Shown: piece after piece, positions 27,293-34,223 of the stretch
Numbering within the stretch: the first letter of the stretch is position 1
Layout: each line of letters starts with the position of its first letter
The notes under the pieces: generated by a model
Told to the model about the DNA's origin: nothing
Seen by the model: the letters and a program-made list of their open reading frames with translations, nothing else
The model's database searches: none
NCBI GenBank assembly: GCA_934254915.1
Contig: CAKQMH010000002.1
Span: forward strand, 85,259 to 149,258
DNA from: an uncultured Alphaproteobacteria bacterium
GTDB lineage: Bacteria; Pseudomonadota; Alphaproteobacteria; RF32; CAG-239
Direction: 5' to 3'
DNA length: 64,000 bases
Translations under genes and position numbers: made by a program

Positions 27293-27583
27293 ATGGATAA
27301 ACTTAAATTAGTCAAAATTATTGTTTGTGTGCTTACTTTTTTATTGGTTTTCGGAACATTACTGCTTTTTGGCAGTATTTACCAAAAAACCCGCTCTGTC
27401 GGCAGCCAAACTGACCGCGTTTTATCCCTCGCCCAACCGCAAGGCAGTCACATTGCCGGTTATTCATACCAAGACGGCAAACTGGTCATCTTGATTAAAG
27501 ACGGCGGTTTAGCCGACCGCCTGTTATTGCTTGACACCGCCGACAATCGCGTTGACACTACCGTTTATTTGACCAAGGAGTAA
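27293..27583 (+). CDS. Small N-terminally membrane-anchored hypothetical protein (first gene of the T4CP cluster)
   Basis: 96 aa. Single TM IIVCVLTFLLVFGTLLLFGSI. Confidence 0.4.
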   Translation: MDKLKLVKIIVCVLTFLLVFGTLLLFGSIYQKTRSVGSQTDRVLSLAQPQGSHIAGYSYQDGKLVILIKDGGLADRLLLLDTADNRVDTTVYLTKE

Positions 27584-27586
27584 GAT

Positions 27587-28543
27587 ATGAGCGATAAAGA
27601 TACTCTTTTTGACAATGATGCGGACTTCATCAACAACAGTTTCGCACCATCGACCATTGACTTGGACGTAGATAATGAACCCAATCAACCCTTGCCGTCA
27701 AAACCCGATGAGGCTGATGAATTTGACCGCCTGCTTGATGACTTCATCAACAGCCAGCTGCAAGATGTCGATGACTCCCAAAATGAACGCGCTGAGTGTC
27801 TTCAAAACGCCAAACCTTTGGCTTCGAAATTGGTTACCGAAGACGATTTTTCACAAAACCTGTTTCCCGAAGAACGCCGATTATATGATGCCATGAGCAA
27901 CTTTATTGCATCGGTCGCTAACCTTGCTGAATCGAAAAACCTGAGCATGCCCGCTACCGAATTTTCAGGGAAAATTTTATATCCGCGCTTCCGCCCCAAA
28001 AAAGCCAAAAGCATTTCCCAAGACATTGTCACTTGCTGGAACGTGATGTTAGAAGCCGAACCGGTGCGGCTTTCCAGTTTGCCGATGAATGCCAGTGATG
28101 AACAAATTTTGGAATTTGCCGAAAAAACCACTAATGAAAATCTGCAAATGTCCCTGATTTCTTATGTCGAAAGCCTGATTGAAATTGAGGGCTGTGAAAT
28201 TGCTTATAACATGCGCAAAGCCAAAGCCGAAAAGCGCAAAATTGAACGCCGCATTTATGAGGAACATCAGCAGCGGATTGAAACGATGAAACGCTATGTT
28301 AAAGCCATTGAAGAACAGCATTTTCCGATTAACGCCGAGCGTCTGGTTACCAACTATTTCAAAACCGCGCGGCACGACCCTGAAGGTGCAAAAAAAATGC
28401 TTGAGAACAATCCCGCCACTTTTGCGCCGATTGAAGTCAACAAAATTCCGCCTCGCTTTTTCGGTATGATAAAGCCTAAACCCGAAGACGGAATCCGCAT
28501 TAACAAAGAAATCGGCCGCTTTTTGAAAAATCTGCGGGCTTAA
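27587..28543 (+). CDS. Acidic soluble hypothetical protein
   Basis: 318 aa. D/E-rich N-terminus. aaggag RBS. Sits 3 bp after the previous gene. Confidence 0.4.
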   Translation: MSDKDTLFDNDADFINNSFAPSTIDLDVDNEPNQPLPSKPDEADEFDRLLDDFINSQLQDVDDSQNERAECLQNAKPLASKLVTEDDFSQNLFPEERRLYDAMSNFIASVANLAESKNLSMPATEFSGKILYPRFRPKKAKSISQDIVTCWNVMLEAEPVRLSSLPMNASDEQILEFAEKTTNENLQMSLISYVESLIEIEGCEIAYNMRKAKAEKRKIERRIYEEHQQRIETMKRYVKAIEEQHFPINAERLVTNYFKTARHDPEGAKKMLENNPATFAPIEVNKIPPRFFGMIKPKPEDGIRINKEIGRFLKNLRA

Positions 28544-31988: not shown

Positions 31989-32009
31989 CCGTTTCTAAGG
32001 AGAGAAAAG

Positions 32010-34223
32010 TTGAACAAAAGAGGAGAAGAATGGGAAGAATATGATAATGCCGTCCGTTGGATGGTTATTACTTTTATCGCTTCCACGGTTATCACCATTT
32101 TATTGGCCTTAATTGCCATGCCTCTGGGTTATCTGCTTGGCAGCGGTATTTCCAAAGACACGATTAACGATGTTTCGCGCTTTTTTGCTTTGGTTCTTGA
32201 CCGCCCCGATTACTTGTCTTCTCGTTATTGGAGTTGGTTTAAACAGCTGATTAACTACCATGGCGACTTTTCTTTCAGCTTGTGGATTCCGATTCTGCCG
32301 TTTATCAGTTTTCCGGCCGGATTATTAATCGGAACTTTAAGCAATCCTTATCGTTTTCAATCCAATATTCATGGTTCGGCGCGCCTGGCTACTGAAAAAG
32401 ACATCCGCAAAATGGCGTTATTGGGCTTTGACGGTTTTTGTCAGGTTGTCGGCAAATTTAACGGCAAGCTGCTCATGTTAAAAGAAACTTTGTCAACCTT
32501 ATGCTGCGCTCCTCCGGGTACCGGTAAAACTGCCGGCGTGGTTGTTCCGACTATTTTCAATTCTCCGACACTGAGTATTATCGTCAACGACCCTAAACCT
32601 GAGTTGTGTTTTTCCACTTCCGGCGCTCGTGCCAAAGTAGGTCCGGTGTTCATCATTAACTGGGGTATGGAAGATAATCCGGCCGAAGGTATTTATTACC
32701 CGAGCTGGAATCCGTTATCCCCCGGCGCAGTACCTGCTCCCGGCCCGGCTCGCGATATGTATGTCGATTCGATGTGCAATGTTTTGGTTGAAGACCCCAA
32801 AGGCGGAGCTGACCCTCACTGGTCTAAAACCGGTCGTGCAGCCCTTACCGGCTTTATTCACTTTATTGTTTCCAAATGCGAAAAAGCTCGCGCCAATGAC
32901 TACTTTATCGGCCGCATTTACGAAGGCAAACTTGATGAGGAAGATAAAAAAGTTCTTGAGGGCTATTATTTGGAGATGAATGACCCGATGGCAACCCGTG
33001 CAGTGCAAAATCTGCGCTCCGGCAACCTCACGATTGACAATTATCTGCCTATCGGAACTTGGGCGCTGCTGCCTGAAAAATGGATTGGCCGCGAATCCTG
33101 CATTGCCATGATTTTGGAATGGATTACCGAAGCACAAATTAAGCAATCGCAAGACATCAAACGTCGTCTTGACGAAGGCGACCAGATGGCGGCCATGGCC
33201 GATCCGATGCGCGATTTGTTGGAAGAAGCGATTACCGAAGCTCGTAAGTTCGGCTATTCAGCCCGCTGTATTGTTGAATTGAGCCAATTAAGCTCTATGC
33301 CGGATAAAGAGCGCGGTTCTGTGCTTTCAACCGCCTTTTCCGGTATTGGTATTTTCAAAAACTCTGCCGTGGTCGCCCGTACCAGCTTCAGCGACATCAG
33401 CTTTAAGGATTTGCGCGGCTTAAAAGACCCGATTACCAGCGAATTTAAACCTATTTCGGTTTACTTGTCTGTAAACCAAGTTGATGCCCGTGCATTAAGC
33501 GTCATTTCCGGCACATTCATCGACCTTATGTCATCTTACCTTATCGCTAACCCGCCTAAGTTTCATAACCCCTCAGACGGCGTTATGGGACCGTTTGCGG
33601 CATTGTTTGTAATGGACGAGTTTCCGACCATGCCGAAGCTTAAAGCGGTTATTGACGGACCGGCAGTCGGACGTGGGCAAAAAGTTTCTTACCTGCTTAT
33701 CGGACAAGACCTCGGACAAATCTCCGGCAAATATGGTAAAGATGACCTTGAAACCGTTATTTCTACCACCGCCTGCAAAGTTATTTTGTCACAAAACAAC
33801 GAAACTACGGCGCAGCGTTTTTCCAAAATGATTGGTAACAAAACCATTCAAACCACCTCTTTCTCCAAAAATGAAGGTGCTTTTAGCAAAGGATCTAACC
33901 CGTTTGCCAAAAACGTCAGCTACCAGTTACAGGGAATTTCGGTTATTTCCGCCACGCAGCTGCTCAGCTTGCCGATGTTAAAGCAGGTGGTTTTGATGCA
34001 AAGTTATATCGATCGCCCGATTATGGCCGATTCGCCACGTTGGTATCTGGATAAAAAGATGAAAGCTTTAGCCTCCATACCGCCGGCACCCAATGTTCCG
34101 GAATGGATTGTCGCCCAGCGTGAAGATATTAATGATGATATGCTGTCCAAGCTCGGAATTGACTATGATCCTAATGAAAATTTTGATGATTCCGAATTTG
34201 AAGATGAGGAAAGCGACGAATAA
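32010..34223 (+). CDS. Type IV secretion coupling protein (VirD4/TraG/TraD-family ATPase)
   Basis: 737 aa, TTG start with RBS aaggagag. Two N-terminal TM helices. Walker A CCAPPGTGKTAGVVVPT, SIIVNDPKPEL, Walker B ALFVMDEFPTMPKL, and a C-terminal VILSQNNETTAQRFSKMIG. Confidence 0.75.
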   Translation: MNKRGEEWEEYDNAVRWMVITFIASTVITILLALIAMPLGYLLGSGISKDTINDVSRFFALVLDRPDYLSSRYWSWFKQLINYHGDFSFSLWIPILPFISFPAGLLIGTLSNPYRFQSNIHGSARLATEKDIRKMALLGFDGFCQVVGKFNGKLLMLKETLSTLCCAPPGTGKTAGVVVPTIFNSPTLSIIVNDPKPELCFSTSGARAKVGPVFIINWGMEDNPAEGIYYPSWNPLSPGAVPAPGPARDMYVDSMCNVLVEDPKGGADPHWSKTGRAALTGFIHFIVSKCEKARANDYFIGRIYEGKLDEEDKKVLEGYYLEMNDPMATRAVQNLRSGNLTIDNYLPIGTWALLPEKWIGRESCIAMILEWITEAQIKQSQDIKRRLDEGDQMAAMADPMRDLLEEAITEARKFGYSARCIVELSQLSSMPDKERGSVLSTAFSGIGIFKNSAVVARTSFSDISFKDLRGLKDPITSEFKPISVYLSVNQVDARALSVISGTFIDLMSSYLIANPPKFHNPSDGVMGPFAALFVMDEFPTMPKLKAVIDGPAVGRGQKVSYLLIGQDLGQISGKYGKDDLETVISTTACKVILSQNNETTAQRFSKMIGNKTIQTTSFSKNEGAFSKGSNPFAKNVSYQLQGISVISATQLLSLPMLKQVVLMQSYIDRPIMADSPRWYLDKKMKALASIPPAPNVPEWIVAQREDINDDMLSKLGIDYDPNENFDDSEFEDEESDE

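Follow-up and report, generated by a model that had tools for sequence, protein, structure and literature searches.

The six-gene cluster and its coupling protein

The stretch of DNA analyzed here (the window), 64,000 nucleotides (nt) of contig CAKQMH010000002.1 from an uncultured alphaproteobacterium of the GTDB order RF32, carries a cluster of six genes, g1 to g6, that ends in the gene for a type IV coupling protein (T4CP). This T4CP coupling module has an undescribed and conserved set of partners, and our literature search found no paper describing it. An open reading frame (ORF) scan recovered all six co-oriented, closely spaced genes that a first-pass annotation, made from the letters of the DNA, had proposed on the plus strand: g1 (27293-27583; 96 amino acids, aa), g2 (27587-28543; 318 aa), g3 (28626-30188; 520 aa), g4 (30200-30685; 161 aa), g5 (30744-31988; 414 aa, with a TTG start) and g6, the T4CP gene (32010-34223; 737 aa, also with a TTG start). 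The gaps between them, from g1 to g6, are 3, 82, 11, 58 and 21 nt. The cluster is flanked by rluD (26248-27240, minus strand) on one side and by the yacG-rng-maf-dksA block on the other. The stop codon of g6 leads at once into a bidirectional intrinsic terminator (34219-34263) common to g6 and the convergent yacG. Its 21-nt arms (34219-34239 and 34243-34263), predicted fold of -24.3 kcal/mol and z of -8.4 relative to shuffled sequences all indicate that the strong terminator noted earlier is real.

The product of g6 is a genuine T4CP, as first annotated, and not an FtsK-type or other P-loop ATPase. It matches the Pfam families T4SS-DNA_transf (PF02534; 2.3e-54, 185 bits against a cut-off of 20.1), TraG-D_C (PF12696; 1.4e-21, 77 bits) and TrwB_AAD_bind (PF10412; 2.9e-16, 60 bits), the latter two likewise above their gathering cut-offs, and in NCBIfam it is closest to families of the VirD4 and TraG types. 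The Walker A (LCCAPPGTGKTAGVVVPT) and Walker B (VMDEF) motifs align with those of plasmid VirD4 proteins, and APPGTGKT and DEF are invariant both across the g6 clade and in the plasmid VirD4s; judged from the alignment, the ATPase motifs are intact. Hydrophobic segments at residues 18-36 and 89-107 correspond to a two-helix N-terminal transmembrane (TM) anchor, and the C-terminal tail is acidic. When a g6 profile was compared with the PDB (E <= 0.01), the sole match was Cag5 (Cagβ) of H. pylori (E = 6e-7), with no match to DotL. The closest cultured relatives are VirD4s of Sphingomonad megaplasmids (33-34% identity), whose virD4 genes end complete virB2-virB11 operons. By sequence, then, g6 is of the VirD4/Cagβ type and not of the DotL type. 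All T4CPs of the chromosomal clade share an insert of ~55 aa in an all-alpha region (YFIGRIYEGKLDEEDKK...NYLPIGTW; residues ~297-351, ~32898-33062, plus strand), which is not present in the closest plasmid VirD4s.

Directly upstream of the T4CP gene lies its constant partner, g5. In the AlphaFold2 (AF2) model of g5, residues 1-117 form a membrane hairpin of two helices whose loop is rich in Trp, and a disordered linker of ~130 residues (~120-250) joins it to a C-terminal alpha/beta domain (253-414). The fold of this last domain matches PD-(D/E)xK nucleases, which have a restriction-endonuclease-like core, and DotM was not listed among the matches. The window copy gave no sequence match in the PDB and no Pfam match at curated thresholds, NERD (PF08378) included. 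An exhaustive profile search gathered a g5 family of 390 cluster representatives, and the Pfam NERD model was matched by 22 of 75 scanned relatives at E <= 0.1 (best 2e-6). On the basis of its model, the C-terminal domain is a divergent NERD or PD-(D/E)xK-fold domain. Because a strongly basic stretch follows the second helix, the domain is predicted to be cytoplasmic. Acidic positions are retained to different degrees among the 75 relatives (D276 in 55; D291 in 55, with Glu in 7 more; E293 in 32).

The most constrained part of g5 follows strand 3: residues 291-323, a stretch of acidic and aromatic character, are invariant in 72 orthologues. Within it, a 29-aa segment (EPGDWLADEERFNDEEPLWFSESSHRISP; residues 293-321, 31620-31706, plus strand) is identical at 28 of 29 positions to residues 656-684 of a 1513-aa TPR-Roc-COR-TIR protein from an unrelated bacterium (P0447; L096). 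Outside this segment, the domain common to g5 and the ROCO-TIR protein is ~30-40% identical. This degree of identity in an unrelated protein suggests that the motif is a strongly constrained binding or catalytic site. AF2 confidence is low over the loop, which maps onto the NERD signature region. That location makes it less likely that the g5 domain is an XVIPCD-like docking signal for the T4CP, an idea weakened further by retention of the motif in members without an adjacent T4CP and in unrelated bacteria. Some of the more distant g5-like genes stand alone, with no T4CP adjacent, and the g5-type C-terminal domain is also found inside TPR-[domain]-Roc-COR-TIR giants and beside an AAA ATPase.

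The gene preceding g5 is its paralogue, as had been proposed for these two-TM proteins: g4 is 28% identical to the g5 N-terminus (BLASTP, E = 2e-12) and consists of the membrane hairpin only. The g5 family divides into paralogue groups A and B, in which the window g4 is a truncated A-type and g5 a B-type member. Full-length A-type counterparts of g4 in other lineages retain the NERD-like domain.

The remaining proteins are less familiar. The acidic character ascribed to g2 holds (net charge -13). The protein is cytoplasmic, and its model combines a disordered acidic N-terminus (~residues 1-40) with a confident all-alpha domain (predicted local distance difference test, pLDDT, of 86). Pfam and NCBIfam gave g2 no family assignment, and a fold search returned generic helical bundles only. 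The 520-aa g3 is a low-complexity protein, as described, and is disordered and fast-evolving. Its proposed glycine-zipper TM helix is doubtful, falling below a Kyte-Doolittle value of 1.6. Its sole conserved part is a short motif at ~residues 131-148 (GDIIDYMMKEIILASANW), and it is otherwise conserved by position, with a single ORF of 437-755 aa filling the gap between g2 and g4 in 73 loci. Both g2 and g3 co-occur with g4, g5 and g6 in several clades, and g2 is kept in at least two gut clades and in the more distant L087 lineage. The single TM segment of g1 (residues 9-27) agrees with its description as a TM-anchored protein. The view that only g6 is recognizable stood insofar as the upstream genes match no described family, with the exception that g1 belongs to DUF6476, a family matched by 32 of 36 g1 orthologues (best 3.7e-10) and by the window copy at 2.1e-4, just under the cut-off. 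Because g1 (present in 73 of 80 loci, see below) is confined to the clade with the rluD-adjacent arrangement, its membership of the module is uncertain.

The first-pass annotation had likened this arrangement to a Dot/Icm coupling subcomplex, and we considered whether the cluster could be a type IVB unit of that kind, composed of DotL, DotM and small adaptors. The architecture alone is alike, with a two-TM protein upstream of the T4CP and acidic or small partners nearby. However, the T4CP profile points to Cag5 rather than DotL, its best family matches are VirD4/TraG, and none of g1 to g4 matches the IcmS, IcmW, DotN or LvgA families in Pfam or NCBIfam. In the absence of any sequence or fold match, homology to DotM and DotL was rejected; the likeness is an analogy at best, and a Dot/Icm-like origin of the cluster is highly improbable.

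Conservation and chromosomal setting

Relatives of the window T4CP occur in 289 species-level genomes, and more than 120 database clusters are 81-92% identical to it; the few with a source name are uncultured bacteria. Carriers include Proteobacteria bacterium CAG:495, 'Azospirillum sp.' UMGS63 and Candidatus Scatocola. The last is listed as Rhodospirillales incertae sedis in NCBI, and its order is called RF32 in GTDB. In a sample of 80 loci, each from a different species, a conserved order was found in which a kinase-like gene, a 162-aa multi-TM gene, rpoH and rluD are followed by g1, g2, g3, g4, g5 and the T4CP gene. This order recurs in 73-80 of the 80 loci, which is more than chance would give, and g4 is present in 79. 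No fewer than 73 species-level genomes, all from uncultured gut Alphaproteobacteria, have the cluster at the same core-chromosome position. Synteny downstream of the T4CP gene is lost in about half of the species.

Median amino-acid identity within this set is 82.5% for the T4CP, compared with 88% for DksA, 77.5% for RpoH and 62% for RluD. The other cluster members are more variable, at 58% (g5), 50% (g2), 44% (g1) and 38% (g4). The GC content of the cluster genes (0.37-0.47, against ~0.42 for the window) reveals no compositional anomaly. These observations fit a long-resident gene set under strong purifying selection, and not the remnant of a mobile element. They also bear out the earlier impression of a native, long-resident cluster, since its synteny and vertical inheritance extend over many species and its T4CP is more conserved than RpoH.

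A mobile origin nonetheless deserves consideration, in the form of a decaying remnant of an integrated conjugative or mobilizable element. T4CPs usually reside on mobile elements; indeed, 3578 of the 4335 plasmid records that match the window T4CP (82%) are typed as conjugative. Such a remnant would, however, be hard to reconcile with six intact ORFs, a T4CP under very strong purifying selection, an identical chromosomal position across dozens of species, native composition, and the lack of any integrase or relaxase gene. We regard this explanation as scarcely credible.

The surrounding window is likewise core chromosome, as judged from the N-termini of dnaB, rpoH, rluD, rho, mnmE/G, parA, radA, recR and dnaX products, with Pfam confirming less obvious ORFs including fliX and parB. 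In the divergent rluD/g1 intergenic region, a perfect 11-nt inverted repeat (TTATAAACAAA-N5-TTTGTTTATAA; 27231-27257) overlaps a promoter-like site (27230-27258) upstream of g1, and this palindrome is possibly an operator. A second promoter-like site (TAGACA-17-TATAAT; 28566-28594, plus strand), with 11 of 12 consensus matches and recognized by consensus match alone, lies in the 82-nt gap between g2 and g3 and may be an internal promoter for g3 to g6. A search for repeats resembling an origin of transfer (oriT) inside the cluster yielded none, the only repeats being the terminator and the palindrome upstream of g1.

Several other genes of the window are of interest in their own right. Some 3 kb downstream of the T4CP gene, next to fliX (36762-37184, minus strand), is a PilS-type type IVb pilin gene (37197-37778, minus strand; Pfam 2.3e-11), whose product has an N-terminus like that of a prepilin. 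The earlier statement that the window contains no pilin was therefore correct for pilins of type IV secretion systems (T4SSs) and incorrect for pilins of type IV pili. In a 333-aa membrane protein (51168-52169, plus strand), a Wzy_C-like multi-TM region is joined to a staphylococcal-nuclease (SNase) domain; this would be a further membrane-anchored nuclease of the same genome. A 464-aa protein (169-1563, minus strand) belongs to the ADP-specific phosphofructokinase/glucokinase family (PF04587, 8.9e-70), which is mostly archaeal and eukaryotic and thus unusual in an alphaproteobacterium. Finally, two tandem genes overlap at 19010-19941 (plus strand); the Pfam CxxCxxCC zinc/iron-chelating domain is found in the first (19010-19447), to which the second (19444-19941) appears, by eye, to be paralogous.

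The module in other lineages and the search for a channel

A g5-like gene paired with a T4CP gene is found again in at least four further alphaproteobacterial lineages (L084, L090, L094, L106 and the L097-L113 clade), whose T4CPs are 59-63% identical to the window copy where compared. Named carriers of the distant g5 relatives are all 'Alphaproteobacteria bacterium' metagenome-assembled genomes. The gene content around the pair differs between these lineages. In L084-L086 (GC 38%; T4CP 59% identical to the window copy) an RHH_4 gene precedes the g5-like and T4CP genes, which are followed by genes for proteins of 204, 154 and 126 aa; L094 has the same RHH_4, g5-like and T4CP order followed by a 221-aa protein. 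In L090 (GC 35%; T4CP 63% identical) A- and B-type genes precede the T4CP gene, with proteins of 336, 144 and 312 aa encoded after it. A second gut clade (L097, L103, L110, L112 and L113; GC 46-58%) carries a g2-like gene and, further on, A, B and T4CP genes and two additional genes, g7 and g8. L106 appears to belong to this second clade, given a T4CP that is 83-86% identical to the copies of that clade and 62% identical to the window copy.

The g7-g8 pair directly follows the T4CP gene in 31 of the 80 loci of the window clade and in L084, L090, L094 and L106 (for example, L053:12235-13297, L084:11992-13070, L090:14853-16326 and L106:12352-13839). Both genes are absent from the window, where nothing lies between g6 and its terminator; the window genome has lost the pair. 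The ~200-aa g7 protein has a conserved MWEWS N-terminus and an HNH-type motif, PEN..H.K.P.DFGG.....N..L....P.H..IH, in which H..N..H..H is invariant in 25 sequences. Its profile found a sole PDB match, a weak one, to the pyocin AP41 DNase (E = 0.23). The ~150-aa g8 protein gives weak SUKH/SMI1-KNR4 signals (SUKH_6, 0.0026; Lin2918, 0.08). An HNH nuclease toxin and a SUKH immunity protein form a classic pairing, and g7 and g8 may be a cognate effector-immunity pair in these relatives.

A toxin-immunity-type pair whose presence varies between species might also point to conflict. One could envisage a membrane defense system in which a T4CP-like motor captures foreign conjugative or phage DNA and delivers it to tethered nucleases, while the SUKH-like protein keeps the HNH protein in check. 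The Roc-COR-TIR giants and the AAA ATPase neighbor that share the g5-type domain are immune-type architectures, and the kinase-like gene next to the cluster matches MkoA and mad6 weakly in PADLOC. Nevertheless, PADLOC gave no match on g1 to g6, and a fixed core-chromosome synteny with an ATPase more conserved than RpoH is the opposite of defense-island turnover. We consider a defense role improbable.

The kinase-like gene itself is the first of a pair (22702-25202, plus strand). Its 670-aa product resembles protein kinases (Pfam Pkinase, 7e-8) and has a TM helix at the C-terminus; the second gene encodes the 162-aa multi-TM protein. The two genes accompany the cluster in conserved synteny in 59 of 80 loci, as well as in the distant L087 lineage, and might be functionally tied to it.

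As the first-pass annotation had stated for channel components, relaxases and integrases, Pfam searches of the remaining ORFs in the window found no VirB, Dot or Tra gene, no relaxase and no integrase, and tblastn of the window with VirB2-VirB11 from the nearest plasmid relative gave no match. We extended the search to ±10 kb around ~170 related loci (2.9 Mb, much of it redundant), where VirB, Dot and Tra genes were sought, also with the VirB8 and VirB9 of L106 as queries, and only VirB genes at a single locus were found. That locus, on the 131-kb L106 contig (GC 54%), carries a VirB9-VirB8-VirB8 islet (L106:884-4107, minus strand) ~3.5 kb from the module. Two VirB8 paralogues (3.2e-21 and 2e-10) come first in it, followed by a VirB9 gene (CagX, 1.9e-12) whose product has a SPOR (peptidoglycan-binding) domain at its C-terminus. 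Between the islet and A-B-T4CP-g7-g8 lie genes for an esterase and a DEAD-box helicase, along with two family-less ORFs, and rbfA-infB-nusA downstream identify the region as core chromosome. At least one module-bearing chromosome therefore has dispersed VirB genes with a duplicated VirB8. Given this islet, the channel for the window T4CP may simply be encoded in another part of its genome. The description of the T4CP as an orphan is accurate for the window and for the neighborhoods of nearly all related loci, and does not extend to L106. A dispersed channel would, in spirit, make the cluster part of a larger type IV system lying mostly outside the window, in dispersed form rather than as a canonical contiguous locus.

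Proposed function and comparison with known systems

We propose, tentatively and as a reading that could almost as readily be right as wrong, that a dispersed VirB/VirD4 system, inherited vertically, has its coupling islet in this cluster, together with novel partners. The cluster would constitute the substrate-recruitment half of this system, with the channel genes located elsewhere on the chromosome, as in the rvh system of Rickettsiales. The hairpins of g4 and g5 could pack against the TM domain of the T4CP, placing the tethered NERD-like domain, together with g2, next to the ATPase hexamer, where they would act as receptors or as processing factors. These partners would then pass substrate to the T4CP and on to the VirB channel. 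As HNH-motif and SUKH-like genes follow the T4CP gene in relatives, the likely substrate class would be DNA or nuclease-type effectors.

A number of points weigh against this proposal. Channel genes are missing from the neighborhoods of all related loci but L106, which belongs to a different clade, and there the proximity of islet and module may be coincidental. The conservation of the T4CP above RpoH is unusual for components of a secretion system. Furthermore, the constant partners have nuclease folds and not those of chaperones or adaptors, so that a DNA-processing unit fits at least as well as an effector-coupling complex. The canonical lysine of the PD-(D/E)xK motif is kept by few members of the g5 family (K292 in 14 of 75 representatives), which makes a catalytic role of the g5 domain uncertain.

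Some of these same points raise the prospect of a stand-alone inner-membrane DNA machine, a domesticated 'Dtr-only' module in which a T4CP hexamer and NERD-like proteins bind, cut and pump DNA without VirB. Possible roles for such a machine include export of DNA to the periplasm or vesicles, uptake or scavenging of DNA, and clearing of DNA at the membrane. The partners with recognizable folds are all related to nucleic-acid enzymes (the NERD-like g5, A and B proteins, the HNH protein g7, and the RHH_4 protein of L084 and L094), the nearest plasmid relatives have virD4 contiguous with virB while nearly every locus searched here is without channel genes, and the T4CP is conserved like the product of a core gene, which suggests a housekeeping role. 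On the other hand, we know of no T4CP that acts in the absence of a mating-pair-formation channel, and a T4CP in a diderm cell has no route through the outer membrane. L106 is, moreover, a module-bearing chromosome with VirB genes, the poorly conserved catalytic lysine is as awkward here as above, and g7 and g8 are dispensable, being absent from the window and from about half of its relatives. Taken together, we think a stand-alone machine rather unlikely, though it is the main rival to our proposal. A bolder version, in which the T4CP and NERD-like proteins form a channel-free core DNA machine across this uncultured gut order and its sister lineages, with the 29-residue motif at its heart, strikes us as equally doubtful.

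T4CPs gate the export of type IV systems and are known to work with relaxosome proteins, Dot/Icm adaptors and XVIPCD effectors. Here, a T4CP is fixed in the chromosome and conserved like a housekeeping protein in widespread uncultured gut bacteria, and always has as its partner a member of an undescribed family of membrane-anchored proteins with a nuclease fold. If it feeds a dispersed VirB system, it would represent a new type of coupling complex and a core secretion or DNA-transfer capacity of gut bacteria, possibly including interbacterial killing through HNH effectors. If instead it works alone, a coupling protein would for the first time have a role that needs no channel.

Among known systems, g6 most resembles the VirD4/Cagβ proteins of type IVA (P-type) systems in its Pfam families, Walker A and B motifs, and two-helix N-terminal anchor. 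It differs from them in having no adjacent virB genes, in its ~55-aa insert, in its chromosomal location and vertical inheritance, and in being preceded by a NERD-like membrane protein. Compared with other NERD (PF08378) proteins, this partner falls below Pfam thresholds, does not keep the ExK lysine, and carries a hyper-conserved acidic and aromatic insert of 29 residues. The Dot/Icm complex (DotL-DotM-DotN-IcmSW-LvgA) offers a parallel in that a T4CP, a dedicated two-TM partner and soluble adaptors are encoded near one another, whereas sequence and fold searches revealed no homology between it and the proteins of the present cluster.

Two further systems resemble the module in part. In the antibacterial T4SS of Xanthomonadales, VirD4 recruits toxin effectors that come with cognate immunity proteins, and the likeness lies in the toxin-like HNH and immunity-like SUKH genes right after the T4CP gene in relatives of the window; the pair differs, however, in that no XVIPCD was identified, it is absent from the window, and it is orthologous across deep lineages rather than polymorphic. 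In plasmid CloDF13, the T4CP MobB is paired with MobC, a MOBC relaxase of PD-(D/E)xK type, and the plasmid has no channel genes of its own. The combination of a T4CP with a restriction-endonuclease-fold protein, and without its own channel genes, is thus common to both, although CloDF13 is a small mobilizable plasmid and the locus described here is fixed in the chromosome.

The rvh system of Rickettsiales, a vertically inherited alphaproteobacterial T4SS split into chromosomal islets in which virD4 follows virB8-virB11, provides a precedent for the dispersed system that we propose. The T4CP here differs in having its own islet with unrelated partners, in a lineage whose loci show no channel genes. 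In the related L106 chromosome, the duplicated VirB8 and the islet flanked by housekeeping genes are reminiscent of rvh.

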